64,000 bases of DNA from Chiloscyllium plagiosum (GCF_004010195.1 NC_057718.1:69773213-69837212); one strand, 5' to 3'. Shown: positions 766-63,369, counted from the stretch's first letter. The notes: generated by a model not told the origin, from the letters alone. Numbers and translations are program-made.

Positions 766-775
766 CACTCCTGGT

Positions 776-1094: not shown

Positions 1095-1107
1095 TCACAC
1101 TCCTGTT

Positions 1108-1460
1108 AATTTTTAAAAATTTTTTGCTATACCAATTTCCATTTAATTAGTAGTAAGAAAAAGACTGAGGAATTAGTGACAGCTATTGCGTTTTCATACA
1201 GAAGGCACAGAATATCCCATATGACAGGGAATCACAGATTGCAGTCAGTTCAGTCACTCTCCCCCCACGGTGAGCCTGTCAAACAGGTACTCTCCCAGGC
1301 CATTCTCAGGGGCTCCCAATCTCTTCAGGTTGGTGATATGATCTCCCAGATTCTTGATCATCTTCACTTGCTTATCCAGGTAGTGTCCCTCCAGGAAGTC
1401 ACAAAGATGAGGGTCCATGTGGTCAGAGGAGAATTTGTGCAGATCCAGCAGACTCTAGTT
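1108..1460 (-). pseudogene. 5'-truncated processed ferritin (heavy/middle-chain type) pseudogene
   Basis: 1460->1254 translates [67 protein letters not shown], the ferritin C-terminus. No intron at DPH|LCDF; in-frame TAG at the conserved Gln; likely +1 G near the end (ancestral -GESD*). 3' UTR has ATTAAA at 1142-1147 and an A-rich tail at about 1108-1125. Confidence 0.93.
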
Positions 1461-1471
1461 ACACTCCTGTT

Positions 1472-3225
1472 TTTTTTTGCGGGTGTGAGACACAGTGAGA
1501 GACACAAGGTGTATGAATCTTTATTCAATTTCCACCACCAGGAAGATACACTCCTGTTTTTTTTTCTTCTTATTTTTTAACCCCCACACTACCGCCTAAC
1601 TGTGGTAGTGCTTATTTTTTCCCCAGCACCCATGGTGTGCGTGTGCAGGTGTGAGACACAGTGAGAGACACAAGGTGCATGAATCTTTATTCAATTTCCA
1701 CCACCAGGAAGATAGGAAAACACCCGGGTGGCCAGTGACAAGCACTCCCCTTCACATCAAAGGGCAGTGCTGTGTGATCAAACAGTGAGGGGGAGGGTAG
1801 GGACTAAATCAAAATAGAGTTGGAGGGAGAAATAATGCACTCCACTCCCTGCGGCGCCCACCTCTCCCTGAACAACTCCAGGGTGTTGGTGGACACCCCA
1901 TGCTCCTTCTCCAAGGACACCCGGGCCCTAACGTAACTGCGGAAGAGGGGCAGGCAGTCGGCACTAACGACCCCCTATCACTCCTGTTTATTTTTTAAAA
2001 TTTTTTTTCTTTTTCTTTTTCTTTCTTTTTTTTTCTACGAATCTTTATTCAAATTCCACTCCTATTTTTTTCTTTTCTTTTTATTGTGTATACGTATGAA
2101 ACACAGTGAAAGACACAAAGTGCACGAATTTTTTTATTCAATTTCCACCACCAGGAAGATAGGAAAACACCCGGGTGGCCAGTGACAAACACTGCCCTTC
2201 TCATCAAAGGACAGTGCTGTGTGATCAAAACAGTGAAAGGGAGGGTAGGGACTAAATCAAAATAGAGTTGGAGGAGAAATAATGCACTCCACTCCCTGCG
2301 GCGCCCACCTCTCCCTGAACAACTCCAGGGTGTTGGTCGACACCGCGTGCTCCTTCTCCAAGGACACCCGGGCCCTAACGTAACCGCGGAAGAGGGGCAG
2401 GCAGTCGGCCCTAACGAACTCCTATCACTCCTGTTTATTTGTTTTTTTTATTTTTTAATTTTTTTTTTCTTTTTTTTATATATATTTTTTTTCTTTTACA
2501 AAGTGCACGAATCTTTATTCAAATTCCACCACCAGGAAGATAGGAAAACACCCGGGTGGCCAGTGACAAACACTGCCCTTCACATCAAAGGGCAGTGCTG
2601 TGTGATCAAAACAGTGAAGGGGAGGGTAGGGACTAAATCAAAATAGAGTTGGAGGGAGAAATAATGCACTGCACTCCCTGCGGCGCCCACCTCTCCCTGA
2701 ACAGCTCCAGGGTGTTGGTCGACACCGCGTGCTCCTTCTCCAAGACACCCGGGCCCTAACGTAACTGCGGAAGAGGGGCAGGCAGTCGGCCCTAACGACC
2801 CCCTATCACTCCTGTTTATTTTTTTTTACTTTTTTTTCCTTTTTTACATTTTTTTTCCTTTTTTTTCTTTTTTTTTAAACCCCCACACTACCACCTAAGT
2901 GCGGTAGTGTTTATTTTTTTCCCAGCACCCATGGTGTGTGTGTGCAGGTGTGAGACACAGTGAAAGACACAAAGTGCACGAATCTTTATTCAGTTTCCAC
3001 CACCAGGAAGACAGGAAAACACCCGGGTGGCCAGTGACAAGCACTGCCCTTCACATCAAGGGACAGTGCTGTGTGATCAAAACAGTGAAGGGGAGGGTAG
3101 GGACTAAATCAAAATAGAATTGGAGGGAGAAATGATGCACTCCACTCCCTGCGGCGCCCACCTCTCCCTGAACAACTCCAGGGTGTTGGTCGACACCGCG
3201 TGCTCCTTCTCCAAGGACACCCGGG
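1472..3225 (-). mobile_element. Six 5'-truncated Tx1-clade LINE copies (1472-1548, 1559-1978, 1989-2056, 2067-2425, 2436-2806, 2817-3225)
   Basis: The longer units encode the ORF2 C-terminus (..DCLPLFRxYVRARVSLEKEHAVSTNTLELFRERWAPQGVECIISPSNSILI*) plus 3' UTR, matching 59046-59770. Confidence 0.85.
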
Positions 3226-3742
3226 AGCCGCTGTGTTTATGTGGTGAGTCTCGTTGAGTTACTGGTCAATGATAACCCCAAAAAGTCCGTGATAGTAACA
3301 CCATTAAATGTCAAGGGGAGGCACTGCAGCTAAATCTGGGGCCATCAACAAAACAAGAGACACCTGCTGAGGAGAAACCCACATCCAAAAGGACGTTAAT
3401 TGCCAGGCGCTGGGTGAAGGGGTACACTCTCAGAGATCTGCTTGCTCAGCAGCATGCAGCATATTCTGAGGCGATGGTGGAAGTTTGAGAGTGAGTCGTG
3501 TATTTACTCAAGCGGGGGTTTCTGCGGCACTGTGTGGAGGTTTAAATCAGTTACCAATTCCTGTTCCATTTCTTGTTTCATGATTGCTTACACACAACAA
3601 ACTAAACTGCCGACTGATACAATCCAGGCAGATTGAATTTATGTTTGAAGCATAAACCCTAAAAAGCACAATGATAAAGCCCGCTCTGTGTCATACATTA
3701 GACAATACCGTTACATACAAAAGTGCAGACAACATTCCTGTT

Positions 3743-4004
3743 TATTTTTTTTTTTTTTATTTTATTAAACAAGTTACAAAACAATTTACAAAAAACATTG
3801 ACAGCTGTACACAAAAGACAGCAGTTTTACAAGGGAGGGGAGCAGCAAAGCTAGGCCCCGAACCCTACCGTTCAACCATTTTACAGGGAGAGGAGGACAA
3901 ACCTCAAATCCCAGTTCCACATATGACAAGACAGTGACAATGACATTTGTACATTAGACAATACCGTTACATACAAAAGTGCAGACAATACAAACCCAGC
4001 AAGT
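3743..4004 (-). mobile_element. Second poly(A)-tailed 3'-end family ('family B'), probably a LINE 3' UTR
   Basis: Ends AATAAAATAAAA(A)n on the minus strand; related copy at about 60630-60856 and a short piece at 3694-3732. Confidence 0.6.
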
Positions 4005-4364
4005 CACTCCTGTTTATATTTGTTGGCCAAGGCTCCCTGATTGGCCCAGACCCAGTCCTAATCATACTCAATGAGATCCACCTGGCCAACCTCATGTCAA
4101 TCACTACAGATGACATTGTCATCCATAAACTAAAGTTCCACAAGTGATGCCAGTGTCATTTTCTTCTTGGATTTCAACCAGTTGAGGTTGAAAAGTTTTC
4201 TGCCCATCCTGTGGACAATTTCCACATACTGGGAAACTTGTTTTTGACGAGAAGAAAAATAGTGGCAATGAAAATGGAGAAAAGGGTGGGGTCATGATAT
4301 TTCTGTGCTTTATCCCTGTCTTGACCTCAAAGGATTCTGTAATATTACCGTCTTTAACATTGTA

Positions 4365-7529: not shown

Positions 7530-9775
7530 ATGCATATGCTGAAAATCTGAAACAAAAACAGGAAGTGTTGGAGAAACTCAGCAGATCTGACAGTGTTTAT
7601 ACAGAAAGAGAAACAGAGATAAGTCCAGTGACCCTTTGTCAGAACTGGAAATAGCTGGCAGACCGTGATATTATGATGACAACAGAGTGGGGAGAAGGGG
7701 TTAGTGACAATCAATGAAGTACATGGAGACAGTTCCCAGATAGAGAGACAGAGAGAAAAAGAGAAAAATGATAGGCAAACAAAGAGATTGTTGGTGATAA
7801 GCTGACAGAGAGATTAATGCAGTGGAGGCTGCAAATGAGTTAGCTGTGCTGGAAGCAATACATAAAAACCAAGACCTAAGGGTGTTGGGAGGGAGGCTAA
7901 TGAACCTGGAGCAGGGTGTTCACATTCTGAAATAGTCCTGAAAGGTGGAAGGACCTCAGCGAAAGATGACATGTTGTTCTCCAGCTTGCATTGAGCCTCA
8001 CTGGAGCACTGAAACAGGCCTTAGACAGAACTGTTGACATGGGAACACTGTTTTGTTGAAGTGGAAGGCAACTGGAAGTTAGGGTCATTTTTACAGACAA
8101 AGTGTAGGTGCTCAGCAAAGTGGTCAATCAGATTGTGTTTTATCTCCCTCGTGTACAGCAGGCCACATTGTGAGCAGCAAATACCGTAGACTAGATTGAA
8201 TGAAGTGCAGATAAATTGCTGCTTCACTTGGAAGTTTTTTATGGGTCCTTACAACATGGGGTAAACCCCTCTGCTAATTTAAAATAGCAACACAGAAAAG
8301 ATTCACACCATGCTGTAAGCTGTTAAAATTCAAGAGGCAAAGAACTATCCCGACAGTCATTATGTAAAGTAAAAATTATCAACTTTATCTTTTTTAAGTC
8401 TAACAGAGAATAATTAACTAACAACTATTTACAACTCATTTCTCTAAATCTATCTTTTACCTTCCCCTCTACAATACTGGTCTGATAGAAAAAAATCCTG
8501 ATTACAATTTTTAAAAAAAATCATGTTTCAAAATCAGTCAGCTTAGCCGAGTGTCCTCTGTAGATTTTCCTCTGTCTTCTTTTCTTCTTCTTAGGGATCC
8601 TGCCTCACAGATAGATAAAGGTACCTTTAAGAGAGCAGTTCAAACTGTGTGACATTTATACACCAAAACATTGGATTGCTTCATTGGTTAATATTGTCAA
8701 AATACGAAACTCAAACTTGATTGGAGATTGGTGTCTTGAGGTATAATTTAAACTGATTGATTTATTTTTGTGTCCAGGCAACACATCTCTTAGCTAGTTG
8801 TTGGACCAAATGTTGCAATGTTACTTTGTTCAGAAAACTGTGCTAGCCAGATATTTCACTCCCTTAAAGGTACAGTACACCCACAACTTCATAACAATAG
8901 TGAGGAGAGAGTAAGTAAACAGATAAATGTTATATTTTCTGTGATTGCATGGAAAGGTGCCATGGCCATGTGGAGAGGTGCTCAGAGTGGAGGAGAAGTG
9001 GATCAGGGTGTCCTGGAGAAGGCAGTTCCTATGGAATGCTGACAAGGGAGGTGAGGGGATTATGTATCTGTTGGTGGCATCCCACTAGAGGTGGTAGAAA
9101 TAGTGGCTTATGATCCTTTGGACATGGAAAGCTGGTAGGATGGAAATTGAGGACTGGAGGACCCGGTCATGTTATAGGAGGGAACAGGTTGAGGGTAGAA
9201 GTACCGAAAATGGCTCATATATAGCTAAGGACCATGTGAACCACAATGATGGGTAATCCATGGCTTAGGAAAAAGTTGAACATTTCAGAGGCTGTCTGCT
9301 AAAAATGACATTATGAGAACAGATGTGACATAGACAGAGAAACTGGAAGAATGGAATGGAGTCCTTACAGAGTGCAAGAATATATCATCAATATGAATGT
9401 GGGAGTTAACGGGATTGGATTGAATATCGGTGACCAGCATATCCCCAGAAATGAAAACACAGATGTCAAGGAAGGAAAAGGATGAGTGAAAAATGGACCA
9501 GATGAAGGTGAGAGTGGGCAAAAATTGATTAAATCTTCCAGTTCTGGACAAGAAAGAGTGCAGCTTCAGTTAGATCATTGATGAGACAGTGACAGAGCAA
9601 AGTATGATTGCAACAAGGAATGTTTTATGAAAACTCCCAAAAAGACAGACATAACTGGGACCCATGTAGGTAGCCTTGGCTAAAACTTTGATCTGAAGAA
9701 AGTGCAAGGAGTCAAAGGTGAAGTTGTTCAGAATGAGGATGAACTTCATCAGGCAGAGGAGAGTGGTAGCCCTCT
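7530..9775 (-). mobile_element. Decayed Penelope-like element (RT plus GIY-YIG), interrupted at about 8250-8896
   Basis: FICTSFNLVYGICCSQCGLLYTREIKHNLIDHFAEHL (GIY-YIG-like) and FSFLDICVFISGD (PLE RT-like). Confidence 0.7.
8250..8896. mobile_element. Solo-LTR-like insertion within the Penelope-like relic
   Basis: About 650 bp block splitting colinear PLE sequence and ending CATAACA; no clear TSD seen. Confidence 0.35.
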
Positions 9776-10139
9776 ACACACCCAACCCATTAAGATGATC
9801 TGAAGACTCTCTGCTCCTTTCATGAGAAAGTCTGAACAGTCCCCACTCACCCCCAGCTCCTCTACCTGTCTGAGCTCATCCTCACTTTAAACAAACTTTG
9901 TCTTTAGCTCCTCTTGCTTTCTTCAGATCAAAGGGGGTACCCACAAGGGGATACTCACAAGGCTCCCAGTTATATCTGTCTCTTTGTGGGGTACATGGAA
10001 TATGCCTTATTCCAGTGCTACTCAGGTCTCCCTGCAAACCTTTCTCATCACTGACATCATCTGTGCTGCTTCCATCTCTAATCCAGAACTGGAAAAAATT
10101 ATCCATCGTCACACAGTCCATTGCTGATTGTTCCGTCCC

Positions 10140-11180
10140 CCTCCTTGTCAATCAATAAAAATAAATCAATAAGAAGCAATTTTAATGTTACATAAAGAGA
10201 AAGCAGTGGTCAGATGCAATGTTGGCTCACTGAAGAGTGAAAGTGGGGATAATGCCAATAACTATGGGGAAATGACAGACACATTAAATAATTACTTTGC
10301 CTTGTTATTTATAGCATACAAAGAAGGTAGCTTGCCAGACGACCTGAGAAAATTAATAGTAGATTAGGAACAGGGACTAAATAAAATTAACAGAAGTAAA
10401 ACATCAATAATGAAAAAGATTAAAGGAATGAATGAGTGGTAAATCCAGAGGACCGGGTAGTTTCTATCCATTGATGTTAAAAAAAAGTAGGGGAGCACAC
10501 TGTAGTTGCCATACCTATAATCTTTCAGAGTTCCCTAGATTCAGTTCCTCTGGTTTGGAAATTTGCACATGTCACTCTGCTTTTTACAAGGGCCAAAAGA
10601 GGAAAGCCAAGGAATTACAAATCAGTTACCCTGACATCTGTGGTGAGAAACTTGTTGGAGTCTATAATCAAGGATGGGGTAATTGAACACCTTGAAAATT
10701 TTGGGTTGATCGGAAGGCTCCACAATGGATTCATGACAGGTAGGTCATGCCTGACAAACCCATTGGAACTTTTGAAGATGTGACTAAGTTAGTAGACAAG
10801 GGATGTCAAATATGTTGTTTATATGGACTTTCAGAAAGCATTTGATAAAGTCCCACATAAGAGACTGCTAACTAAGGTAGGAATCCAATGGAATTGAGGA
10901 TAAATTACCAACAGAGCTAGGAACTTAGCTGAGTAGCAGGCGACATAGAGTAGGAATAATGGGTGGGTACTCAGATTGGCAGGATATGACTAGTGGTGCT
11001 CCACAGGGTTTATGTTAGTGCCTCAATTGTTCATATTATTTATTCGTGACTTGGATAATGGCATAGAAAGTCATATATCCAAGTTTGCTGATGACACAAA
11101 ATTAGGTGGCATTTTAGATAGTGTAAATGATAATATAAAATTACAAAGGGATATTAATAGATTAGATGAATGGGTAAGTT
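10140..11180 (+). mobile_element. Decayed CR1 LINE ORF2 (RT)
   Basis: YMDFQKAFDKVPH-like segment; LFILFIRDLD..ISKFADDTKLGG. Confidence 0.8.
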
Positions 11181-11199
11181 CAGAACAGGTTCAGAACGG

Positions 11200-11780
11200 T
11201 TTTGAAGAAGAGTCACTGGACTCAAAACATTAACTCTGCTTTTTCTCCACAGATGCTGCTTGACCTTCTGTGTTTCTCTGGAAATTTCTATTTCTGTTTT
11301 GGATTTCCAGCATCTGCAGTTCTTTTCCTTTATTATTCTCTATTTCAAGTCTGCTTCAGTGTTCCAGTAAGACTCAATGCAAGCTGATGGAACACATTCA
11401 GGGCTCGACATTGACTTTAACAATTTCAGAACATGAACTAGAACATGTTCATTATTCTTCCCCACAGATTTAAGTCCTGTGTGCTTGGGTTGCTCCCAGC
11501 ACAGCCAACTCATTATCAACCATTTACAATTCTAGTCAGCACCTTAACCAGCATTTAACACTCTCTCAGCTTATAATCAGCATTTTCAGTTTGTCTATCC
11601 CATTTTTTCTCTCTCTGTCCATTCTCCCCACACTTCCTAATAACACCGCTATGTCATCAGAATGAATCCCACCATTTCCCGGCTATTTCCAGTTCTGACA
11701 AAAGACATTGGACTCAAAATATTTCTCTACAAATTCTGCCAGACCTGCTGAGTTTCTCTAGCACTTTCTATTTTTGTTTG
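11200..11780 (+). mobile_element. Penelope-associated terminal-repeat fragments
   Basis: Two degenerate units of the GAAGAGTCACTGGACTCAAAACATTAACTCTG..CAGATGCTG type. Confidence 0.5.
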
Positions 11781-11949
11781 AAGTGATGGGTGAGGGTGGA
11801 TTTCAACTTGTCCAAAATATTACTCACGCAAAAGTCAAGCCTTGACTTTTTGACAGAAAAAATTGTCTTAGTAACTTAATTTTATATGAATATAAATGGC
11901 AAATTGCTATTGCATGAACAGAGTTCCAATCTTTTACCACACAATAGAC

Positions 11950-13150
11950 AGCTATTGTAATTTCTCTGTAACATTTTGATCTTGCCCTTGAACTGGATTG
12001 TCTGCCTAATGATAATACTTTTACCAATCAACCCTTATTTGGTTTCCTTAACATTGTGATAACTTAAGTCATAACATGCCTTAGCCATCTAGATTTTAGG
12101 GAGTGCAACCCTAGTTTGTTTAATTTCTCTTCGTAATTTAACCCCTGAGGGTTCAGACATCATACTCGTAAATTTGCCCTGAACTGTCTCTAAGATTAAA
12201 ATATCTTTCTTAAAGTGAGTTGGTCAGGACAGCTCACTGTACTCCAGATGTAGTTTAGCCAGGGCTCCTGTATTCAACTTTTCAAAATATGAAGAGCAGC
12301 ATTCCATTGAACGTTTTTCTCATATCATCTGTACCTGTTTATGACATTTTAAGACTTGTTTACAGATTTTTACGTTGCTGCAGGAGGCCTTCATGCCTTC
12401 AGCCCATCATACCTGCACCAACACTCTGAGCATTTTAACCTAGAGCCAATCTTTTGTCTCTTCACAACAATCCTACATACTATTTCTATTGAAATTATTA
12501 TCTAATGCCCTATTGAGTGCCTCAGTTGAACTTACCACCACCTTGTCTCGAAGACAGTATATTCCAGATCTAAACTACTTACTGTGTGAAAAAGATTTTA
12601 CTGACCTACCATTTGCTTCTTTTGCAAATCATTTCAAATTATACTTTTTGATTCTCAATCCATGTACAAGTGTAAACAGTTTCCGCCATGAACTCCATCC
12701 AGACCCTTTATGATTTTGAAAATTTATTTTGAAAACTTCTTAGTCTACTCCGGTCCAAAGAAAACAGTCCTGACTTCTCCAATCAATCTTTATAACAAGA
12801 TTCCCTTGGAACCATTCTCCAATGCATCCACAAACTTCCTTTATGTGGTGCCCAGGACCATATATGATACTGTAGCTAAGGTCTACTTAGTGTCCTACAT
12901 AGGTTCTTCAACACTCCCTACTCATGTACTGTATGCTTCTATTTATGGAGCCTAAAATCTACCATGATTTAACAATGCATTTAAATGGATTCCCAAGTCT
13001 TTTTAAACTTCCATTTTTCCAGCTTTTCACCAGTTACACATATCCCTGTCTATTCTTTTTTTGATCCAAACATGATGATCTCACATTTGCCTACATTGAA
13101 ATACATTTTCTATGTTTTTCCATTTAATTAATCTATCAATAAATCTTTAT
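11950..13150 (-). mobile_element. Old nested CR1-like LINE fragments
   Basis: Reverse-complement matches to CR1 ORF2 C-terminal motifs; heavily decayed. Confidence 0.5.
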
Positions 13151-17262: not shown

Positions 17263-17500
17263 GATAACAATAAATTCTCTCCTTTGTCCTTGAGGGGACC
17301 CCCTAGCATTTCCTGAGCTACTGCCGTGCTCCTTATGCAAGTATAAAATATCTTGCGGTTTTCCTTCATCAAGTTTGCCATGGAAATTTCATAGCCCCTA
17401 ACTCTTTGCTTTTGTTCTTCCCTGACTTCTTTTTGAGGACTGTCTGTCTTCAGTTTCCTAAACTGTCATAAGCCTCATCTTCTTTTTTGACTAAGCTCAC

Positions 17501-17736
17501 TGAAATAATTCCACACAGGCCAGTATCCTATCTCCAAGTCACCCATTATTTACATGTGGAGAGTTCTTGACATCGATCCAGCTCCCTAAGAGCCAGCTGC
17601 CAGAGTAAACAGGAAGTCTGACACTCCTGTTCTTATCTGTCATCCAGGGCTACCTAATTAGACCAGGTTAACAGTCCCAACTAGGGAACTCATATTCTAT
17701 GAGGTCCACCTGGCTGACCTCATTACAATCACTACA
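17501..17736 (-). mobile_element. Uninterrupted Gypsy 3' LTR (same family as 546-4108) with an empty target site
   Basis: Preceded on the minus strand by a polypurine tract GGGGGAAGGA (17737-17746); single CACTCCTGTT at 17622. Confidence 0.82.
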
Positions 17737-19378: not shown

Positions 19379-20640
19379 TAAGTGGTGACACCTACAATGT
19401 CCACCTCAGATTCCAAGATATCTTGAAAGCTTGATGGAGAGGGAGAACCCACAGGTTCTGCAACAGTCAGAAAAGCTGTTGAGAAGACAGACATGTTTTG
19501 TTCTCTCACTGTTTGCAAGTGTGCAGTTTTCACATGGTCCATGTTCTTATTTAGGACTGTCACACCTACCTGAACTTTATACATCATTGGACCTGACCTC
19601 ATGTTGACTATGCCTCTTACCAATGCAGGGCCATTCCTACGGTTCCTACACCAAACTTCATCTCCTGAAATAAATGTCGTTCTCACTTAGCAGAGCCTTG
19701 TGGCTGGCATTGGTATTCCTGATGTTGTATCACCCTTCCCACTCCAGGTCTGGGAAGATCAGATTTAACTTGGTGTGGATCCTCTCCCCATCAGCAACTC
19801 TGCTGGAGTTATCCCTGTAGTTTGTATGAGGGGTGGTCCTATATTCAAATAGAGACTGGGACAGTTTGGTATCAAGTGAAGCTGTAGGTTGTTTCTTTAA
19901 GGCTGTGTTCAAAGGCTGGAGAGTCAAAGGCTGGTCTGCTCTTTCTGACAGGCCATTTGATGATGGGTGGTATGGAACTGTCCTTGTACGCCTATGCCAT
20001 TTGACTTTAGGAAATACTCAAATTCCCTGCTGGTAAACAATGGCTCGTTATCTGTGACCAACATTTGGGCAGAAAATGTGTGTAGTTTTTCTGTCATTGT
20101 CCCTATGTTGAACAAATTATCTCTATACAACCAGCCACTTTGTGTAGGTATCCACAATGTTTAAGAATATGGAACCCATGAAAGGACCTGATAATCGATG
20201 TGTAATCGAGTCCAGGATTTACTCAGCCATTCCCATGAATGTGGGGGAGTTGATGGCAGTAGTTTTTGTCCAAATTGGCCTTCTGGATACGAACCCAGTA
20301 ATGCAGCTTTGTCTGCATCCAATCCTGGTCACCAGACATAACTTCTCACAACCATCTTTATTTTGGAAACCCCTGGATGACCCTGGTGGAATTCAGCCAG
20401 TATCTGGTGGTGACCTTTGCTCAGATCAATCATTCTTGTTCTCCATAATAATATGCTATCCCTGACTATGATCCGGTCTCCCTAGGTCCAAAAAGGTTTA
20501 AATTCTGGCCTTTCTATTTTCCTCATCGCCACCAGCTGTTCCAGTTCTGCCAGGATCAAACTATTTGTATCCAAAGTCGTCTGTGACTGGAAATTGGATT
20601 GTTAGTATTATTCGGGACACTGGTGTGCACTTCAGATTGA
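19378..20640 (-). mobile_element. Gypsy pol integrase region, decayed
   Basis: LVTDNEPLFTSREFEYFLKSNGI; LSQSLFEYRTTPHT; EVWCRNRRNGP..GPMMYKVQVG. Confidence 0.78.
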
Positions 20641-48799: not shown

Positions 48800-49095
48800 A
48801 GATGGAGCACTCAAGTACAAAGTGGCACATGTTAATAAAGAGTGACTTGGTGATGGAATACCGGCCTCTGCAGAGTTATTTCAGTGGTGACAAGAGTGGG
48901 GTTATTTTTTAAGGTCTACCCCAGGTTGCCATTTATCTAGATGATGTATTGTTCACAGGTAAGACCAATGAGGAGTACTTAGAGAACTTGAACATTGTCC
49001 TCAGACATTTCTCCCAGGCGAGTCTATGCCTTAGAAAGGAAGAATGTTTGTTCCATGTAACTGAAGTGAACTACTTGGGCTACAGAGTCGACCAG
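48800..49095 (+). mobile_element. Gypsy LTR 3' end and PBS joined to an RT fragment (internally deleted)
   Basis: AATAAAGAGTGACTTGGTGATGG..TTATTTCA GTGGTGAC; VAIYLDDVLFTG. Confidence 0.65.
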
Positions 49096-50364: not shown

Positions 50365-51040
50365 TGCAGATTCTAAGTTCTTTGGAAGTGGAGTTTCAAG
50401 CAGACAGGGTAACAAAGAAGGAGTTTGGTAAGCTTTCCTTTATTATTCAGTGCCTTGAGTATAGTTGTGCTGTCATGTTTCGGCTGTACTGGACATTGGT
50501 TAGGCCACTTTTGGAATACTGTGTTCAATTCTGGTCTCCCTGATATAGGAAAGATTTTGTGAAATGTGAAAAGGTTCAGAAAAGATCTATAAGAATCTTA
50601 CCAGGGTTGGAGAGTGTGACCTATGAGGAGACGTTGAATAGGCTGGGGCTATTTTCCATGGAGCTTCAGAAGATGAGGAGTGACCTTATGGAAGTCTACA
50701 AAATCATGAAGGGCATGGATACAGTGACCAGTCAAGGTCTATTCTCCAAGGTAGGGGAGTCCAAACCTAGTTATTTAAAGTGAGAGGGGAAAAATTTAAA
50801 AGGAACGGAAGAGACAACTTTCTCAAGGAAAGGGGCTGCCAGAGGAGGTGGTGGAAGCTGATACAATTACAACATTCAAAAAGCACCTGTATGGGTATAT
50901 GAATAGGAAGGGTTTAGAGTGATATGAGCAAATGCTGGCAAATAGGGCTCTTTTAATGTAAAATATCTGGTCGGCATGGGTAAGTTGGACCAAAGGGCCT
51001 GTTTCTTGGGTGTACACATCTATGGCTGTATGACTCTACT
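50365..51040 (+). mobile_element. CR1 LINE 3' fragment
   Basis: LYWTLVRPLLEYCVQFWSP. Confidence 0.82.
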
Positions 51041-53483
51041 TGACAAGGTCCAGCTTCTTCAGAGCCAGCTCTCAGAGTGAAACCTCTGACAGTCCTGTTT
51101 ATAATCCATATTTGTCAGCCAGAACTCCCTGATTGGGGCTAATAATCTGGTCCAATCAGGGAACTCACATTCTGAGGTCACCTGGCCTCAGGTCATCTGG
51201 GGATATATGCCTGTTCTTTCTCTTGTAGCTTCTCCTGGGGCATTTTCGCATCAGGTTGGGTTTCTCTGAGTAGGCCTCAGATACGGGCAGTGTGTACCAT
51301 ACTGTAGCCTGCTTTTTATGCCCGGACATCTTGGAAGAAATTCATCCTTGTCTCCAGATGGTAAAGATGTCGTAGCTGTGACATCCACCATGTCCATCTC
51401 AGACACTAGATAGATGCATTCTGATAGCCTTTCTGACTGTTCTGAGGGGCCAGGTATGTTTTACTCCTATCCCATTTGCAAGTTTTCAGCTTTCATGTAG
51501 TCCCCACATGCTTGTTCATGACCACCTTACCTACCTGAACTTTATATGTCATGGGACTTGACCTTGTGTCAACCTTGTCTCTTACGCAAGCAAGGCCATT
51601 TCTGTGGTTTTGGCACTAAACCTCGCTGCATGAAGTGAATTTTTGTCTCTCTTGCAAGGAATCTTCAGTATAGAATTGGCACTCCTGATGCCATTTCACC
51701 CTCCCCTCTCCAGGTTCAAGATGATTGGATTTAACATGGAGTCTTCTCCCCATTAACTTCACTGCTGGAGCTATCCCTGTAGTTGCATGAAGAGTGGGCC
51801 AAAAGTAAAATAGGAACCTGGTAAGTTGGGTATGGAGTAAGCCTGCTTTCAATGGTGGTACGGCACTTTCCACCAGACCTTTCGACGATGGATGATATGG
51901 AGCTGCCATTTGACTTTAGAAAATATTCAAAATCCCTGCTGGTAAATCATAGCCCGTTGTCTGTGACCAACACTTCCAGCAGTCTGTGTGTTGCAAAAGA
52001 TACTCACAGCTTTTCTATCATGGTCCCCATATTGACGAACAAGCTTAATGCATGTCCAGCCACTTTGAATGGGCGTCCACAATGACTAAGAACATTGAGA
52101 CCATGAAAGGGCTGGCAGAGTCGCTATGTAACCAAGTACAGGGTTTACCCAACCATTCCCACGAAATTAGAGGAACTCGATAAATTTTGTCCTTGTTGAC
52201 ACTTTGGGCACTGTGGCTATGTTTGCATCCAATCCTGGCCACCAGATATAACAACTCACCAACATCTTCATTATGGACACTGTGGATGGCCTTAATGGAG
52301 TTTAGCGAGGGACAATCATTCTTGCTCCCCATAATAAAATGTCATCTTCTACGGTGATCTGGTCTCACTGGGTCCAGAAGGGTTTCAATTCTGGTTGTGA
52401 AGGCCCTTTTGTTTCCCCCATCACCACCATCTGTTTAAGTTTTCCCGGGACTAGACCTTGTTTCATTCACAGTGCGATATTGTCAGCTGTGATCGGAAAG
52501 ATGTCCAGAAGGTTTAAAATCACTGGCGGCACCATTGATGGTGTATCTATCAGTGGAAGGTGGTCAAGGTGTAATTCCAACTTGTAATTGTAAGCACTCA
52601 GAATGAGAGCCCACTGCTGCATTCAACTTCAAGCTATGGGTAGTGCAGCCTTGTCTTCTTTGGATAGCCCTAGCTTCAGTTTGTGGCCTGTGACCATTAC
52701 AAATTTACATCCACAAAAGGTATTGGTGGAATTTTCTCAACTAAAGATGATGGCCAAAGCTTCCTTCTCGATCTGGGCATATCTGCATTCGGCATCAGCC
52801 AGAGTCTGAGGAACATATGCGAGTGTTCCTCTCCATGGGCCATTTGTGAGCCACACCACCCAAATACTGTGAAGGGAGGCATGGCATGTCGGCACCAGAT
52901 CTTGCTTGGGATCATTGTGTACTAACATCTTAGATGATGAGAGCTACTTCTTCACTTCCCTAAATTCCATGAGACCATTTCCAAGGCTGATCCTTCTTCA
53001 AAAGCAAATGTAATTGTGCCAGGATGGAGGCCAGGTTACATATGAACGTTCCATAATAATTCTCCAATCTCAGGAAAGACTTAAGCTCTAGTACAGACAT
53101 GGAAGCTGGGGCATCTTTGATTGCCCTCTCTTTCTCGTCCATTGGATTTACCCAAGTAGGTCACTTAAGGTGCCTGCAACACAGATTATTCCCTTTTTAT
53201 TCATACTCCCACCTTGGATAAACATCAAAGGGCTATGCCCAAGTTCTCTAAGTGCTCTTTATTGGTACTCCCGTTACTAACATGTCATCTAAATAGATGG
53301 CAATTGGGTGTTGACTCTATAAAATGTTCTGCATCTTCTGCTGAAACATTGCAAAGGCGAATTATATCACAAATGTCAGTTACGTACATCAGTACAATGC
53401 TTATGGGTATTAAATGTAGCATATTTCTGGAAATCCTCACCCTAACCACAACTGAAGGTATGCAATTTGTGAAGGACAGCCCT
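51041..53483 (-). mobile_element. Gypsy element: partial 3' LTR (about 51041-51196, empty site) plus decayed pol (IN, RH, RT)
   Basis: APYHPSSKGLVESAV; FLVIVDAHSKWLD; YAQIEKEALAIIF; ELKSFLRLENYYG; GACAGTCCTGTTTATA at 51088. Confidence 0.8.
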
Positions 53484-56400
53484 TAGAGTCATAGAGTCAC
53501 AGATATGTACGACACGGAAACAGACCCTTCGGTCCAACCCGTCCATGCTGACCAGATATCCCAACCCAAACCAGTCCCACCTGCCAGTACATGGCCCATA
53601 TCCCTCCAAATCCTTCCTATTCATCTTTTAAATGTTGCAATTGTACTAGCCTCTACCACTTCCTCTGGCAGCCCATTCTACACACGCACCACCCTCTGCA
53701 TGAAAGCGTTGCTTCTTAGGTCTCTTTTATATCTTTCCCCTCTCACCCTAAACCTATGCCCTATAGTTCTGGACTCTCCCACCCGATGGAAAAGACCTTG
53801 TCTATTTATCCTATCCATGCCCCTCATGATTTTATAAATCTCTGTAAGGTTACCCCTCAGCCTCCGATGCTCCAGGGAAAACAGCTCTAGCCTATTCAAC
53901 CTATCCCTATAGCTCAAATCCTCCAACCCTGGCAACATCCTTGTAAATCTTTTCTGAACCCTTTCAAGTTTCGGATAGGAAGGAGGTCAGAATTGCATGC
54001 AATACTCCAAAAGTGGCCTAACCAATGTCCTGTACAGCCGCAACATGACCTCCCAACTTCTGTATTCAATACTCTGACCAATAAAGGAAAACATACCAAA
54101 TGCCTGCTTCACTATTCTATCCACCTGTGACTCTACTTTCAAGGAGCTATGAGTTGCTCTTCAGAGGGTCATTGTGGACTTGTTGGGCCGAAGGGCCTGT
54201 TTCCACACTGTAAGTAATCTAATCTAAAAAAAAATTTCACCTCATCAGGCTTGGGCCTGAATCTTTTACTACAGTCAGTGCTAACTGAAACAGCTGCTCC
54301 TCATAGAACCCCTACAGTGTAGAAATAAGCCCTTTAGCCCAACAAGTCCATACCAACCCTCTGCAGAGTAACCCACCCAGATTCATTCCCCTATAATTAC
54401 CCCTGACAAATGCACCTAACCTACACATCCCTGAACACTATAGGCAATTTAGCATGGCCAATTCGCCTAACCTGCACATCTTTGGATTGTGGGAGGAATC
54501 CAGAGCACCTGGACGAAACCCATGCAGACACGGAGAGAATGTGCAAATGCCCCATAAACAGTCACACAAGGCAGGAATCGAATCCAGGTCCAGTGCTAAC
54601 CACTGAGCCACCATGCTGCCTGAGACCAGAACTGAAGTTGTACCTTTAATCTGTAAAGGTTCTCTGGTTTAAATCCTCAGACTAGCTGAAGTCTTGGACA
54701 AACTTAAGAATTGGAGTCCAGAATGAATTTTGATAAAGACCGGTTCTTCAACCACTGATACAGCTGCATTGGTTATCAACTTCCATTAGACTCAGGTAAC
54801 AATTTATCCAGATGTTTACTTTGGTTGGTTCTGATTTGGATGTTGCTAAGTAATGTAACTGTTCCAAGCCAGATATAGGTGGGCTTTCTAGGGTGTGCAC
54901 TCCTCTGGATACTGGCCTAAGTCCTCTTACTGAATTATGCCTAGTGGGGACCAGTATGAGGTCACATACTGACAGCAATTACAAGAGCTTGCTGGCCTGG
55001 TTCCTGAAGAAAATGTTAACCGTTTGACTGAGGTTTGGTTTTGTTTAAGGGTTTTATTTTAGGACCAAGTGTCCCTCTGTTCAAGATATGTCCTCAGTGA
55101 CGCTGTGCAGTTGCCTTCATTCAAGTGGTGTTCCCCAAGCTCAGTCAGCTTGGTGAGGGTGTCCACTTCCATCAGCATACCCTGAAACTCATAGCGTCAT
55201 AGAGTCCTACAGCATGGAGACAGGCCCTTTGGCCCAAACTTGTCCAAGTCAACCAAAATGTTCAACTATGCTAACCCCATTTTACTGCACTTGGCCCATA
55301 TTTTTCTAAATCTTGCCTATCCATATATTTGTCCAAATGCCTTTTAAACGTTGTCAATGTACCCCCCTCAACCACTTCTGTCGGCAGCTCATTCCTCTGT
55401 GTAAAAACGTTGCCTATCAGATTCTTTTTATTCTTCTAGGAGAAAATGAGGACTGCAGATGCTGGAGATCAGAGCTGAAAATGTGTTGCTGGAAAAGCGA
55501 TGTTTCGGGCATGAGCCTTTCTTCAGGAATGAGTATAGTCATTCCTGAAGAAGGGCTCATGCCTGAAACGTCAATTCTCCTGCTCCTTGGATGCTGCCTG
55601 ACCTGCTGCGCTTTTCCAGCAACACATTTTCAGCTCATTTTATTCTTTCCCCTCTAACCTTAAACTGATGCCCTCTAGTCCTTGATTCCCCAACCCTGGA
55701 AAAAAGATTGAGTGCATTCACTTTATCCATGCCTCTCATGATATTATATGCTTCAAGAAGATCCCCCCTCAGGCTCCTAAGTTTTAAAGAAAAAAGTCCT
55801 GGCTTGTCTAACCTCTCCCTATAATTCAGACCTTTGAGTCCTGGCAACATCCTTGTAAATTTCTTCTGCACTCTTTCCAGTTTAATAACATCCTTCCTAT
55901 AACAAGGTGGCCAAAACGGAACACAATACTCCAAATGTGGCCTCACCAATGTCCTGTACAATTGCAACGTAACTTAACAACTTCTATACTCCATGCCCTG
56001 ACTGATGAAGGCCAGTATGCCAAAAGCCTTCTTCACTGCCCTGTCTATCTGTGGCTCTAGTTTCAGAGAATCATGCACCTGAACTCCAAGGTCCCTCTGT
56101 TCCACTATACTCCTTAAGGCCCTACCATTCACCATGAAACTCCTACCTTGATTTGATTTTCGAAAATACAAGACCTCTCACTTATTTATGTTAAACTCCA
56201 TTTTCCATTTCTCAGCCAACATCTCCAGGTGATCAAGGTCCTGCTGCAATTTCTGATAACCTTCCTCACTGTCCATGATTCCACACATTTTAGTGTTATC
56301 TGCAAGCGTACTAAGCATGCCTTGCACATTCACTTCCTCTGGCAGCCCATTCTACACACGCACCACCCTCTGCATGAAAGCGTTGCTTCTTAGGTCTCTT

Positions 56401-58580
56401 TTATATCTTTCCCCTCTCACCCTAAACCTATGCCCTATAGTTCTGGACTCTCCCACCCGATGGAAAAGACCTTGTCTATTTATCCTATCCATGCCCCTCA
56501 TGATTTTATAAATCTCTGTAAGGTTACCCCTCAGCCTCCGATGCTCCAGGGAAAACAGCTCTAGCCTATTCAACCTATCCCTATAGCTCAAATCCTCCAA
56601 CCCTGGCAACATCCTTGTAAATCTTTTCTAAACCCTTTCAAGTTTCGGATAGGAAGGAGGTCAGAATTGCATGCAATACTCCAAAAGTGGCCTAACCAAT
56701 GTCCTGTACAGCCGCAACATGACCTCCCAACTTCTGTATTCAATACTCTGACCAATAAAGGAAAACATACCAAATGCCTGCTTCACTATTCTATCCACCT
56801 GTGACTCTACTTTCAAGGAGCTATGAGTGTTCAGCAACACTCCCTTGGACCTTACCATTAAGTGTATAAATCCTGCTAAGATTTGCTTTCCCATAATGCA
56901 GCATCTTGCATTTATCTAAATTAAACTCCATCTGCCACTTCTCAGCCCATTGGCTCATTTGATCAAGATCCCGTTGTAATCCAAGGTAACCTTTTTTGCT
57001 GTCCACTACATCTCCAATTTTGGTGTCATCTGCAAACCTACTAATCCATATAAATCCTATTTGCAAGGGATTTATCCAGCTGCAAGAAGCGTTTCGCATT
57101 TGTTTAAAATTCCAATTCGGAAAACCAATTCGGCTTCACAATTGGTATGATCAGTTCTGCCCACTCCACATGTACTGATTGGATGATTCCTGTGCTTTCT
57201 GGCCTCCTGGTTCCTGCCTCTATGTTTGCCCACAATGCAAATTCTACTGGATCGGCCATGCAAAATCATGGAAATGCTGCCTGGTGAACATGCAAGGTGG
57301 CCTCCCTAGACCTTGCTAGAAAAGAATGTCCATGTATTTAATTAGAACTTCACTCAAGCAGTCATTTTCTAATGGAGAAATTCTGAGCTAATCAAGGTGA
57401 ATCTTTCTCAACCAATTTCACTTCATCAGGCTTGGGCCTGAATCTTTTACTACAGTCAGTGCTAACTGAAACAGCTGCTCCTCATAGAACCCCTACAGTG
57501 TAGAAATAAGCCCTTTAGCCCAACAAGTCCATACCAACCCTCTGCAGAGTAACCCACCCAGATTCATTCCCCTATAATTACCCCTGACAAATGCACCTAA
57601 CCTACACATCCCTGAACACTATAGGCAATTTAGCATGGCCAATTCGCCTAACCTGCACATCTTTGGATTGTGGGAGGAATCCAGAGCACCTGGACGAAAC
57701 CCATGCAGACACGGAGAGAATGTGCAAATGCCCCATAAACAGTCACACAAGGCAGGAATCGAATCCAGGTCCAGTTCAGAGAATCATGCACCTGAACTCC
57801 AAGGTCCCTCTGTTCCACTATACTCCTTAAGGCCCTACCATTCACCATGAAACTCCTACCTTGATTTGATTTTCCAAAATACAAGACCTCTCACTTATTT
57901 ATGTTAAACTCCATTTTCCATTTCTCAGCCAACATCTCCAGGTGATCAAGGTCCTGCTGCAATTTCTGATAACCTTCCTCACTGTCCATGATTCCACACA
58001 TTTTAGTGTTATCTGCAAGCGTACTAAGCATGCCTTGCACATTCTCATCCAAATCATTGATATAGATAACAAACAGAAATGGGTTGAGCACTGATCCCTG
58101 AGGCACTCCATTAGTCACAGGCCTCCAGTCTGACAAGCATCCTTCCACTATTACCCTCTGCTTCCTACAATCGAGCCAGTTGTGTATTCCATTTGCCAGC
58201 TCACTCGGATTCCATGCGATCTAAACTTACAGAGCAGCCTGTCATATGGAACCTTATCAAATGCCTTACTGAAATCCATATAGATTACATCTACCACCCT
58301 GTCCTCATCAAAAAACTGGAACAAATTTGTGAGGCATGGTCTCCCATGCACAAAGTCATGCTGATTATTCCTAATCAAACTCTGCCTTTCCAATGCATGT
58401 ATGTCATATCTCAGAATCTTCTCAAGTAATTTACCTACACAGATGTTAGGCTTACTGGTCTATAATTCCCACATTTTTGTATGCAGCCCTTCATGAATAA
58501 GAGTGCAATATTCACTACCCTCCAATCTTCCAGGACCTCACCTGTGGCTAACAATGATGCAAAAATATCAGCCAGGGCCC
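53484..58580 (-). mobile_element. Nested CR1 LINEs, HE1 SINE copies (54302-54620, 57483-57775) and Gypsy remnants containing three near-identical duplicated blocks
   Basis: 53657-54154 = 56331-56828; 54233-54594 = 57414-57775; 56062-56331 = 57775-58044; CR1 RT motifs (GVPQGSVLNPFLFVIYINDLD). Confidence 0.8.
55472..55636. repeat. Inverted pair of Penelope terminal repeats with back-to-back hammerhead motifs
   Basis: GAGCTGAAAATGTGTTGCTGGAAAAGCG and its reverse complement; TTCAGGAATGA-gtatag-TCATTCCTGAA at the centre. Confidence 0.7.
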
Positions 58581-58594
58581 CTGCAATTTCTTGT

Positions 58595-58840
58595 CTAATC
58601 TTTTGCTCCCTTTGCATTTTCTAATGACAAAGCCAGTTGTAGTGCCTGTTTGAAAGCGAGCTGGGCTTCAACTATTAGGTGCTTTTCCATGGTAATGTCA
58701 TTAATTCCATATACCAAATGGTCTCTCAGCATCTCATGAAGGGGTAAACTGAAGTCACATGCCTCTGCTATTTGTCTTAACCTCATCAAAACTCCCAACA
58801 CGAATTCCTCTATTTCTCAAACTGTCAAGAATTAGCGTCA
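58595..58840 (-). mobile_element. Gypsy gag remnant
   Basis: RLRQIAEACDF..EMLRDHLVYGIND..LAFKQALQLALSLENA. Confidence 0.72.
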
Positions 58841-59045
58841 TAAAATTCCTAAACTAAATCTGCCAACTCTTTTTGATGTTAGTTTTAGTAACTGGTGTGT
58901 CACTGAGATAGCTCCACAGAGGCTGGTATCCCATCACCAAATCACCTTTTACTTACATGAGCATAGTACAGACATTACTCCGGCTTCCTCAAAGCCAGCT
59001 GTCAGACTGAACAAAACCTCCAGTCCCTCTGACCTTCCTCTTTAC

Positions 59046-59770
59046 TTTTCTTTTTATTTCAAGCCTAACTGCGGTAGTGCTTATTTTTTTCCCCAGCACC
59101 CATGGTGTGTGTGTGTGCAGGTGTGAGACACAGTGAGCGACACAAAGTGCACGAATCTTTATTCAAATTCCACCACCAGGAAGATAGGAAAACATCCAAG
59201 TGGCCAGTGACAAGCAGTGCCCTTCACATCAAAGGGCAATGCTGTGTGATCAAACAGTGAAGGGGAGGGCAGGGACTAAATCAAAATAGAGTTGGAGGGG
59301 GAAATAATGCACACCACTCCCTGCGGCGCCCACCTCTCCCTGAACAACTCCAGGGTGTTGGTGGACACCGCGTGCTCCTTCTCCAAGGACACCCGGGCTC
59401 TAACGTAACCGCGGAAGAGGGGCAGGCAGTCGGCCCTAACGACCCCATCCACGGCCCGCTGCCTCGACCTGTTAATGGCCAGTTTGGCCAGGCCCAGGAG
59501 CAGACCCACGAGGAGGTCTTCAGACCTGCCCTCCCTCCTCCGTACCGGGTGCCCGAAGATCAGGAGCGTGGGACTGAAGTGCAACCAAAAGCAGAGGAGG
59601 AGGCTTTTAAGAAAATCCAAAAGGGAGTGCAAACGCCCACACCCAACATACACGTGGTCCACGGACTCCACAGCGCCACAGAACAAGCAGTTGGGATGGG
59701 AGTCCGTGAACCACCGCAATCTGCGGTTGCAGGGGACTGCAGCGTGCAGCACCGTCCACCCCAGATCCCC
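59046..59770 (-). mobile_element. Tx1-clade non-LTR retrotransposon 3' end (ORF2 zinc-finger C-terminus, open from the gap to the stop at 59276)
   Basis: LGWTVLHAAVPCNRRLRWFTDSHPNCLFCGAVESVDHVYVGC..GLAKLAINRSRQRAV; CxxC-H-C motif typical of L1/Tx1 ORF2; CpG-rich, suggesting a young copy. Confidence 0.85.
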
Positions 59771-60299
59771 NNNNNNNNNNNNNNNNNNNNNNNNNNNNNN
59801 NNNNNNNNNNNNNNNNNNNNNNNNNNNNNNNNNNNNNNNNNNNNNNNNNNNNNNNNNNNNNNNNNNNNNNNNNNNNNNNNNNNNNNNNNNNNNNNNNNNN
59901 NNNNNNNNNNNNNNNNNNNNNNNNNNNNNNNNNNNNNNNNNNNNNNNNNNNNNNNNNNNNNCAATACTCAGTGCCAATATTTTTGGGAATGCTGTCAAAT
60001 AAGAATTAAATCAATTGAATGTGACAATTTCCCAAGGCATTGCTTAATTAAAGCAATGGTGATTCCAAATATCCTGGGCAATATTCAGCCCTCAATGAAC
60101 ACAGCACAGATTAACAGGTAGAAAATTATGCAAAATGACTTCTCCATTTCAACTCTCCATGGTTCATGTCAACAAACAGTATGGGACCAAACAAAAATCC
60201 AGTTACACATTGCGGTAAAAGCATTTTAAAAATTCTTTTTAAAATGGCCTAGCAAAAAGCTATCCCTCAAGCAAAATCATTGGAAAAAATACAGTTATT

Positions 60300-60460
60300 T
60301 TCTCAGTGCTGTCTGTGGGATCTTGCTCTGTACAAATTGGCTGCCACATCTCCCTGAAGGATGACACTGACTATACTTAATTGTGTTTCATTGGCTGTGA
60401 AGTGCTTTCAAATTGACTTAAGGTCATAAATATGTCACAGAAATGCAAGCCTTTCTTTTT
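60300..60460 (+). mobile_element. Deu-domain SINE remnant (SacSINE1/AmnSINE1-like)
   Basis: GCTGTCTGTGGGATCTTGCTCTGTACAAATTGGCTGCC..TTCATTGGCTGTGAAGTGCTTT..AAATGCAAG matches the recalled DeuSINE consensus. Confidence 0.6.
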
Positions 60461-60629
60461 AAATCTGAGGGTTTTTTTTTCTCTAACCAGCGAGCGGTGG
60501 GAGATGGGGAATAAAACTGGTCTCCATCAGAAAGGCAAAAACCTACTGTGGGTCAGCCAGCAATTGGTTTTAACATGACATGCCATTTTATCTCTTTACT
60601 AAAGAAGTAGCCACAATACTTGATGCTCT

Positions 60630-60856
60630 TTTATATTTTATTAAACAAATTACAAACAAATAGTTTACAAAAAACATTTACAGCTGTACATAAGAGACAG
60701 CAATGTTACAAGGGAGAGGAGCAGCAAAGCTAGGCCCCAAACCCTACCATTCAACCATTTTACAGGGAGATGAGGACAAACCTCAAATCCCAGTTCCACT
60801 TATGGCAAGACAGTGACAATAACATTTGTACATTAGACAATACTGTTACATACAAA
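60630..60856 (-). mobile_element. Family B 3'-end copy
   Basis: Colinear with about 3755-3977; abuts the TSD at 60857. Confidence 0.7.
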
Positions 60857-63369
60857 GACCTTCCTCTTTACATCTGTCAACTAGACCTCCTTGATTGGAC
60901 CAGGTTAACAGCTCCCAATCAGGGAACTCATTTTCTACAATGACCACCTGGCTAACCTTGTTACAATCACTGCACTCACAAATCTATCAAAAAGTGCTAG
61001 ATAAAGTGAGTAGGGCATGGTACTTAACTGTGTGAATAGATGCATTGAATAAAAACAATAAGATAATAAATAAGCCAGTTAGCCTGCTCTGCCACACAAT
61101 TATATCATAGCTGATTTTGATCATGAACTTGTAACCACCTTTCCCCATAACCTAAGATTCTCCTATAGGATTAAACACTGCATAGCGCAACCTTGAATAT
61201 AGTCAATGATCCAACACAGACTGATCTCTAAGGGAAAGAATTCAAAAGATAATTAACCCTCAGAAAAAACACTTCTTCTCATTGTTATGATTCAATTAGG
61301 GATCAGTAACACCCAGGAACATCATCAGCAGAACTGAGCCATGTTTTCCATAAAAATATGAATCAATGCCAAAGGTGCTCCACGCATCTCCCTGGTGACA
61401 TGGAATATTCTGGGAAATCCCCAAACAGACCTTTTGGTGAAGTATGTCTTATTAAAATTCCATTGATCTTAACAAATAAATGGATTTATAATGAATGTAC
61501 ATTGACTGGTTCCAACTCCAATAAAAAAAACTCTCTGGATTGCTTTTATTGTAGTGGTCTTGTCTCCATCAAAAACCCACAATGAGGCCAGGCATGGTTT
61601 AAGTTTCTCCACTTGTTTTGTGTCTCCAGTACTCTGATTTTTTTAAGTCAATATGGTCCAGCCTTACTATAAGCATGACAATATTTCAGTATTCATAAAC
61701 TCAGGCTAATTTGAGTTGCATTCACGGCAGATGTTTGAGTATTTAAAATCAAGGTATCCCAGTTATCCACAGTTATATATCAATCGCTAAAACCTCAATT
61801 TATATCCTAAGGCATATAAATTATGAACTAAGTTTTGACACATTCCCCAAGAAAAAAATGAATATGCATCAACCTTGTAATGAGTTTTAATTTCCTCCAG
61901 TTAAAATATTACAACATGTTATATGACTGAACAACTATCCTATCCAATAACCATCTCTCTATTGTCCAATTAAATTCACAAGTCCATCTTAGAAGTACTG
62001 GATCACTGAATCATTGCCCATTAATCACAGTTCCATTTAAAATGTGCAATATTGCTTTATGCAATGTTTTCTCAAAGTTTTCATCTGAGAATGATTAGAT
62101 TCCACAGCTCTATCTGAAAGAGGAGATGCCTTACTGTGAGTTTTCAAGTTCAATCTTTAAAACAGTCTGTTCAGATTTCAGTTTTATTTACTTGACCTAT
62201 CTAAAACTCTTTCCAGATTGTCTGTGTCCTCCTCATATTTTGGTTTCCTTTACATTCGGTCCTTTCATCCAAATAATTAACACAGATTATTAATAATTGA
62301 GGCCCCAGGAATGTTCTCATCTCACTTGTGACAGTTTGTCAAATAAAAAAATGATATTTATTGATTCTTATTTTCTATTTGATAGCCAAATCTCTAGTGA
62401 TAAGAATATATTTTTTCCTAATACCAAATCTCAAAGAGAACAACATTGTATGCTGCATGAAAAAGGGCTTGGCAAGTAGATTCTGATTTGTCAAGGCATT
62501 GTCTTGGAGAATGCACTAGGGAACAGTTATCCACAAACTTTATTTAATTTCAAAAAAAGGCAGGTTCACGCTGAATAGTTGAGGCATTGCCAAGTGAATG
62601 CAATGGTAAATATTTGTCTGACATTCTTCTGTTCAATCAAAAAAAGCACATGTTACAAAGGACATGGCCCTATATATGAATGCATATAGATAGCATCTAG
62701 CCAGCCCATATGAATCACATTGTGAGCCAAGTTAATAACATTAAAATGATTGTTTGTGTTGTGGGAGTTTAGTTTTCAGTCAGTTATACTTTTCACTTTC
62801 AAGTGGTTCAAATAGCTCCCAACCCTTGGTTCTGGACTCTGGACTTATTAATCAGAATATAATAAAAAGGCAGCAAACAGATATCTGAGGGCAAAATGAT
62901 CTCTGCATTTATTTATGTACATAAAAGTAACACAACAATATATCACAGCTATTCACTATTATAGAAGGTGCATTATCATTTATAAATACACTACTAATTA
63001 GAGTTACTATATTAGAATCACAATACACTGATAATACCCACCTCCCACTAGTAACTAAGTTGGAACTCTTGGGTCTCAGGACTATGCTCACCACTTCAAA
63101 TGTGGTTTTGGAGTTCGCTTGATGAAGTTGCTCTGGCTTGCCATCCCCTGGGCATGGAAGAGGATTTTGAGGAGCACAACGATTCAGCCTGGGTTGAGTC
63201 GACTGATGCAGTTGGGTGTGTTTTGGATCTCTCGGATATGTACTTGGTTTTTCTATACTTTGCTGGTTAGTCCGGTTCAGTCTTCACATCAGTTTGTGTC
63301 TGAGGACTTGCAGTGTTGGTCACCTTAGTCAGTGCTTCAAATTTTGTCAGCCTTGGTTCTGGTTGTCAT

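Follow-up and report, generated by a model that had tools for sequence, protein, structure and literature searches.

The interrupted LTR at 58.9 kb

We analysed a 64,000-nt window of Chiloscyllium plagiosum DNA (GCF_004010195.1, NC_057718.1:69773213-69837212; positions are counted from its first letter), a stretch of repeat-rich vertebrate DNA with two N gaps whose named protein matches include cartilaginous fishes. At 58904-60974 (the 58.9-kb locus) a long terminal repeat (LTR) is split by sequences of two families, a long interspersed element (LINE) that we assign to the Tx1 clade (family A) and a second retroposon (family B), which also occupy another LTR of the window at 546-4108 (the first array). 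The insertion at 58.9 kb has the same position and orientation as that in the first array, possesses its own target-site duplication, tail and Tx1-type end of the second open reading frame (ORF2), and arose independently of the first array. The original prediction had described the locus in much the same terms; the split at a homologous position, the exact duplication, the orientation, the two families and the presence of an N gap were all borne out, while the interior content was not.

The break is marked by a 15-bp direct repeat, GACCTTCCTCTTTAC, found exactly at 59031-59045 (left copy) and 60857-60871 (right copy) of the plus strand, with unlike bases on both sides, and not extendable. When aligned singly to the uninterrupted LTR (17501-17736), both halves of 58904-60974 meet at one and the same target, and this also holds for the halves of 546-4108, so that the breakpoint coincides in the two interrupted copies. 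A chance 15-mer was rejected, because the repeat lies exactly at both junctions and at the homologous site. Compared with the target of the first locus, GACACTCCTGTTTAT (656-670), 11 of the 15 bases match, the changes falling at positions 4, 5, 10 and 15; both copies of the duplication share these four changes, which are absent from the three other LTR targets in the window. Read on the minus strand, this target forms a TATA-like box, with the letters TATAAA after CCAAT in the copies at 4.0 and 51 kb and TGTAAA at the 58.9-kb locus, including its right copy. At 15 bp, the duplication is longer than in the first array (about 13-14 bp), and the second-strand break therefore differs by 1-2 nt. 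Just ahead of the diverged target, 59012-59042 looks like a decayed short tandem duplication of the 51-kb type of target, and a near-palindrome (17600-17634) spans the target of the uninterrupted LTR, its minus strand containing a word close to the diverged target.

Both parts of the host LTR lie on the minus strand. The 3' part, including the left target copy (58904-59045), ends with CA on that strand and is 74.8% identical to 17501-17611 over 111 nt; the 5', U3-like part (60857-60974) begins with TG, contains CCAAT upstream of the decayed TATA-like box, and is 80.6% identical to 17635-17736 over 103 nt. The LTRs have TG..CA termini, and the pol pieces of the internal region occur in the order reverse transcriptase (RT), RNase H, integrase. 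The RNase H is marked by a Pfam match to RT_RNaseH_2 (E 7.8e-9 at 52740-52943) and the integrase by a match to rve at 19927-20160 that falls below the cut-off (E 0.0035), in a region 65% identical to 51475-52450, while the RT-like frames were recognised by reading. No Pfam family was returned for 5 of 7 Gypsy pieces in one search or for the single piece in another, and the host is called Gypsy-like from the likeness of its gag, primer-binding site (PBS) and pol pieces. To the left of the LTR, an open frame on the minus strand (58595-58816), for which Pfam gave no family, presumably is a gag-like remnant, and we take the letters at 58894-58903, next to the LTR 3' end, to be PBS-like. Because the RNase H and weak integrase matches mark internal regions and the gag-like frame lies left of 58904, the copies at 546-4108 and 58904-60974 are 5' LTRs and those at 17.5 and 51 kb 3' LTRs.

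All three comparators are on the minus strand: 546-4108, with 11 target copies between stacked inserts; the uninterrupted 17501-17736, with a 13/15 target; and the uninterrupted, left-truncated 51039-51196, with a 14/15 target. The last is the likely partner of the 58.9-kb LTR by gene order. The 5-bp word CTCAC, which flanks the outer ends of the 17.5- and 60.9-kb LTRs (17496-17500 and 60975-60979), would instead favour the 17.5-kb copy, 43 kb apart; each candidate is 78% identical to the 58.9-kb LTR. A fifth LTR piece was detected on the opposite (plus) strand at 48825-48891, within a segment (48825-49079) where, together with PBS-like letters, it is directly joined to an RT-like fragment.

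The left target copy is followed by a degenerate poly(A) tail of 14 nt (59046-59059, minus strand), T-rich on the plus strand, which places the LTR and its inserts all on the minus strand and in the orientation seen at the first locus. Family A extends from 59060 to 59770 (minus strand), with a 3' untranslated region (UTR; 59060-59275) and an open ORF2 C-terminus (59276-59770) cut by the gap, into which 915 reads extend the frame. Over 158 aa, this ORF2 end shares 48% identity with the 149-kDa protein of Xenopus TX1 (E 6e-33), and it matches zf-RVT of Pfam below the curated cut-off (E 0.00039); P0002 shares 68% identity with it over the full length and 41% with TX1 over 99%. A poly(A) tail, 5' truncation and a target-site duplication are all present, and 5' ends vary in the first array. 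Family A would thus belong to the Tx1 clade, as judged by ORF2 similarity and insertion hallmarks. The first-array units of family A (687-3225) begin at different 3' points downstream of an AATAAA signal, which suggests alternative polyadenylation and separate insertion events.

Family B (60633-60856, minus strand), a 5'-truncated, 3'-UTR-like retroposon end with an AATAAA signal, abuts the right target copy. The family may represent a Tx1 3' UTR or a partner short interspersed element (SINE): its copies are 3' ends of 224-257 bp only, within the window they share no similarity with family A, and Rfam gave 0 matches in the window. The tail of family B at 58.9 kb is not a normal one: it consists of four T, followed by AT.

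Independence of the two insertions

The same two families are present in both arrays: family A at 59060-59770 is 93.0-95.4% identical to four first-array units, 198 of 214 positions are shared between the family B copies at 60633-60856 and 3760-4003, and all seven family A and two family B BLAST matches elsewhere in the window fall in the first array. The host LTRs at 0.5 and 58.9 kb are, outside the target, identical at only 137 of 182 positions (75%). At 93-95% identity, the inserts are of much later date than the divergence of their hosts; they did not travel with the LTR when it was copied, and the copying of an already interrupted LTR is thus ruled out. In a sensitive search of the 64 kb, copies of families A and B were found only within these two LTRs, at the homologous nucleotide, and the preference for this target is therefore replicated independently, as originally proposed. 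The chance of a second locus falling within 2 nt of the homologous site in the right orientation is about 1e-4, a rough figure that ignores T-rich bias and the choice of window.

Other cargo is found in the first array. A 3' part of a ferritin mRNA lies between two target copies (1110-1460; Pfam Ferritin, E 8.4e-6). As this piece occupies the same target, the specificity resides in the protein rather than in read-through RNA of the LTR. A SINE-like repeat (809-1095) has been loaded in the same manner as the ferritin piece.

Four of 23 listed public runs provided evidence from outside the window; organisms A, B and C are represented by contigs (X1, X5 and X7, respectively) and organism A also by raw reads (X19). 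Fifteen of 498 joints were displayed overall, and 12 of 314 rows of the joint table; seven of these 12 rows connect a family A end to another unit or LTR, all in organism B, and five are internal deletions. The tool places joints leftmost, and contigs lose rare variants. A depth of 0 at 61126-61500 in all three contig runs was given no weight, since records are filtered by the tool. From X19 depth relative to five single-copy bins, we estimate about 9,600 ends for family A and 1,300 for family B, or 8,000-12,000 and 1,100-1,600, respectively, assuming a genome of 3-4.5 Gb. A 21-nt word of family A was found at 0 loci in an exact scan of metagenome contigs and of viral contigs.

A target-like spacer is present in six of the seven displayed family A joints. 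Two run into the other half of the LTR via GACATTAATATTTAT (11/15) and ATATTCCTGTTTTT (11/14), and in four, stacked units are parted by GTCCCTGTTTA, CACTCCTTTTTAT, CTCTCCTGTTT and GCTCCTGGTCAT. Counted by hand over the six spacers and the 58.9-kb locus, positions 4 and 5 each vary in 4/7, position 10 in 3/7, and positions 9 and 12 in 0/7; as far as these sequences indicate, the changes at the 58.9-kb target fall where other occupied sites vary. The spacers are single copies from one run, chosen by the tool for support, and only joints within the studied stretch are visible. Since the four changes are common to both copies of the duplication, the target appears to have drifted before the insertion at positions 4, 5 and 10, and probably also at position 15. 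The tolerance of mismatches suggested in the original prediction is thus supported both by the duplication and by the occupied sites of organism B.

Gap, middle segment and contiguity

The insertion contains an assembly gap at 59771-59961 (191 N), the true size of which is probably larger. In X1 record 8, the 543 letters left of 59962 have no listed piece on family A, and the gap is therefore not simply Tx1 sequence. It is followed by 671 bp (59962-60632) without a match to family A, family B or anything else in the window, so the run of A and B units once implied for the interior gives way to foreign, single-copy DNA, which also rules out further Tx1 units as an account of this segment. Contigs of the three species all stop matching at 60632 (X1 record 8, X5 record 15 and X7 record 23) and continue elsewhere for 1265, 1308 and 1105 letters; none of their listed pieces falls on family B or the LTR. 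Raw-read depth of the segment in X19 is 0 to 0.94 in five bins outside a small repeat, and X1 depth points to one version at single copy (7.32 versus 6.64 for record 1). The segment differs from the X1 copy at 3/671 positions and from organism C at 22/671, from which we conclude that the sequence in the window is either the native locus itself, as present in species A, or a copy made very recently. The four T at its junction with family B also belong to the native locus, and no X19 read spans the junction (60632/60633).

Most probably the segment comes from a contig that was misplaced or misjoined, and otherwise from a later capture. Were it truly present, it could stem from 3' transduction by a family B source or from templated repair of a re-cut target between A and B units; it does lie downstream of family B on the strand of the latter, the junction is a T-run microhomology within a loosely target-like word, and in the first array, too, an A unit and B sequence are separated by foreign DNA (3226-3693). 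We nevertheless regard true presence as unlikely: the native locus lacks family B in three of three contig runs, with one version at single-copy depth in X1, and family B has no tail of its own here, which tells against transduction and capture alike and, together with the native locus without B, excluded 3' transduction as the principal explanation. The absence of B from the native locus is not proof, given that contigs lose rare variants. Any capture must in addition be recent (3/671 versus 22/671; p=0.004 were it as old as the private changes of the A copy, a lower-bound estimate). In the first array, the 468 bp of foreign DNA lead from an A unit to 39 bp (3694-3732) that exactly duplicate 3950-3988 in the neighbouring B unit, the whole occupying 3226-3732 and paralleling the middle segment of the 58.9-kb locus.

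Several observations weigh against a single, contiguous insertion at 58.9 kb. No contig or read crosses the whole locus, the joint 59030-60857 is absent among the 15 joints displayed, and no individual record of the right junction was seen. X1 record 1 carries the left junction and the diverged target (piece 58915-59064; three other letters, one gap), but to the left of 58915 its 1557 letters do not resemble the window and the depth of X1 is zero at 58809 and 58837, so that the left flank differs in that individual. A deletion in the X1 individual would explain the difference, and a chimeric join in the window is possible; X5 record 9 connects the left flank of the window to the LTR up to 58930. 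Near-identical duplicates of old, diverged repeats are found in permuted order nearby (53657-54154 = 56331-56828; 54233-54594 = 57414-57775; 56062-56331 = 57775-58044; 270-498 bp, 99.6-99.8% identical), and these three duplications at 53.6-58.0 kb look like gap-filling patchwork of the assembly or a recent templated rearrangement.

The two halves might accordingly derive from different LTR copies set side by side by scaffolding, the 15-mer being a shared subfamily variant rather than a duplication. The gap and foreign segment between the halves, the different left flank of X1 record 1 and the patchwork duplications would all fit, yet the halves share four changes found in none of the three other LTR targets of the window and stand in the right order and orientation. 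Indirect evidence comes from X7 record 17, which matches 58914-59030 and ends, with 59 letters remaining, at the base that precedes the duplication; given the leftmost placement of joints, this end may be read as an empty, contiguous site ending at 60915, the second half not being among the displayed joints. We therefore consider a scaffolding origin very improbable.

Targeting and its significance

The account that we favour, and hold to be probable, is that an old Gypsy-like 5' LTR was hit at its TATA-like box by a Tx1-clade LINE that recognises its site degenerately, on a target that had already drifted, that families A and B were loaded in turn, and that the middle segment is extraneous. 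The endonuclease of this abundant LINE would nick the plus strand after target position 15, reverse transcription would be primed from the poly(A) tail, and cleavage of the other strand 15 nt away would produce the 15-bp duplication. To judge from the changes in both copies and the six spacers at other loci, recognition would be degenerate, approximately TCCTnTTTA, with no need for an intact TATA box. The duplication would rebuild the site and permit families A and B to be loaded one after the other, as the first array and the A-target-B joints of organism B suggest, and the 671-bp middle segment would lie outside this retrotransposition.

Other points speak against this account. One of the seven spacers is not target-like, single spacers cannot tell old target drift from later mutation, and a C-interrupted tail might account for the C at position 15 in the left copy. 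The window contains no endonuclease or RT domain for family A, all copies of which are 3' ends there, and two uninterrupted 3' LTRs with better targets (13/15 and 14/15) are empty.

Family A might have only a loose, L1-like preference for T/A junctions, for which the T-rich TATA-like box of an abundant LTR family would be a hot spot. The abundance of the family (an estimated 8,000-12,000 ends) and the hit on a target of only 11/15 are compatible with this, but among sites with up to four mismatches, 2 of 4 within LTRs and 0 of 20 outside them are occupied (Fisher p=0.022; small numbers), none of the four non-LTR TCCTnTTTA sites is, and spacers at other loci retain a CTCCTG-like upstream part, not T alone; we regard a purely loose preference as distinctly unlikely. 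The same difference in occupancy is explained equally well by position-specific tolerance and by LTR context, the alternative offered in the original prediction, and the latter could act through tethering by TATA-binding protein (TBP) or another promoter factor, or through open chromatin of 5' LTRs, the 15-mer being secondary. In line with this, the site is a TATA-like box downstream of CCAAT, inserts are oriented along the direction of the LTR, and the two copies that were hit are 5' LTRs whereas the two empty ones are 3' LTRs (n=2 versus 2). However, an A-to-G change at the second TATA base abolishes binding by wild-type TBP (PMC1636458), and the 58.9-kb copy, reading TGTAAA, counts against TBP tethering, on one locus; the 51-kb copy has an intact TATAAA and is empty; and purified Tx1L endonuclease is described as nicking its target without cofactors (PMC1950540). 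Targeting by context appears to us hardly probable, and the degenerate recognition of the site itself is preferred.

Targeting of other transposons, LTR elements included, by Tx1 families is already published, and the 58.9-kb locus is a real example of it. By analogy, the insertion would work like Tx1L and the crocodilian Tx1 families that prefer LTRs. Of the latter, Tx1-8_Crp and Tx1-4_AMi are described as preferring specific LTR retrotransposons, as family A does here (PMC4494074); no LTR position or TATA box is known to be named for them, and the likeness concerns the target. According to the same source, Tx1-Mar families and their SINEU passengers occupy hot spots of a Mariner element in crocodilians, where a LINE and non-autonomous passengers likewise share sites within another repeat and stacked copies flank each other (PMC4494074). 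Their target is Mariner-N4, and the window offers no counterpart of an snRNA-derived head (0 Rfam matches; 5' ends missing). Tx1L of Xenopus laevis, whose ORF2 end is the one 48% identical to that of family A, resides within Tx1D, its sequence-specific endonuclease placing the element at one site of another transposon; Tx1D is a DNA transposon and the specificity is described as stringent, unlike the 11/15 site at 58.9 kb (PMC1950540). Keno, also target-specific and of the Tx1 clade, inserts into U2 snRNA genes (PMC4640811), whereas the flanks at 58.9 kb are LTR and Rfam indicates no U2 gene; the target at 17.6 kb may resemble U2. A family has been counted as target-specific when more than 20% of its flanks are of one repeat type (PMC4494074); LTR flanks were found at both window loci and in two of the seven displayed X5 joints, the other flanks being invisible. 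Among the papers listed in the literature searched, which left aside most subscription papers and Repbase reports, none describes a shark Tx1 family aimed at an LTR TATA box, and the supplements of PMC4494074 may cover a similar site.

A bolder proposal, which we regard as quite doubtful, is that one LTR family is recognised, through a degenerate code at its TATA position, by a shark-like lineage of Tx1, that full-length copies would land about 13-15 nt downstream of the box, along the direction of the promoter, and borrow it, and that re-cutting of the rebuilt site may also capture unrelated single-copy DNA, as both arrays appear to show.

Since both copies of the duplication carry the same changes, the locus records a target that was mutated before it was hit. 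The interiors of arrays in gapped assemblies can be misjoined, and a count of units should leave out the middle of the locus. Sites of this kind identify the positions to which a sequence-specific Tx1 endonuclease is indifferent (4, 5 and 10 in this case, and probably also the base at the nick), and the mutated site argues against TBP binding as the cue for targeting. Given some ten thousand copies within an LTR family that decays slowly, the duplications collected genome-wide would provide a natural map of the specificity of this endonuclease.

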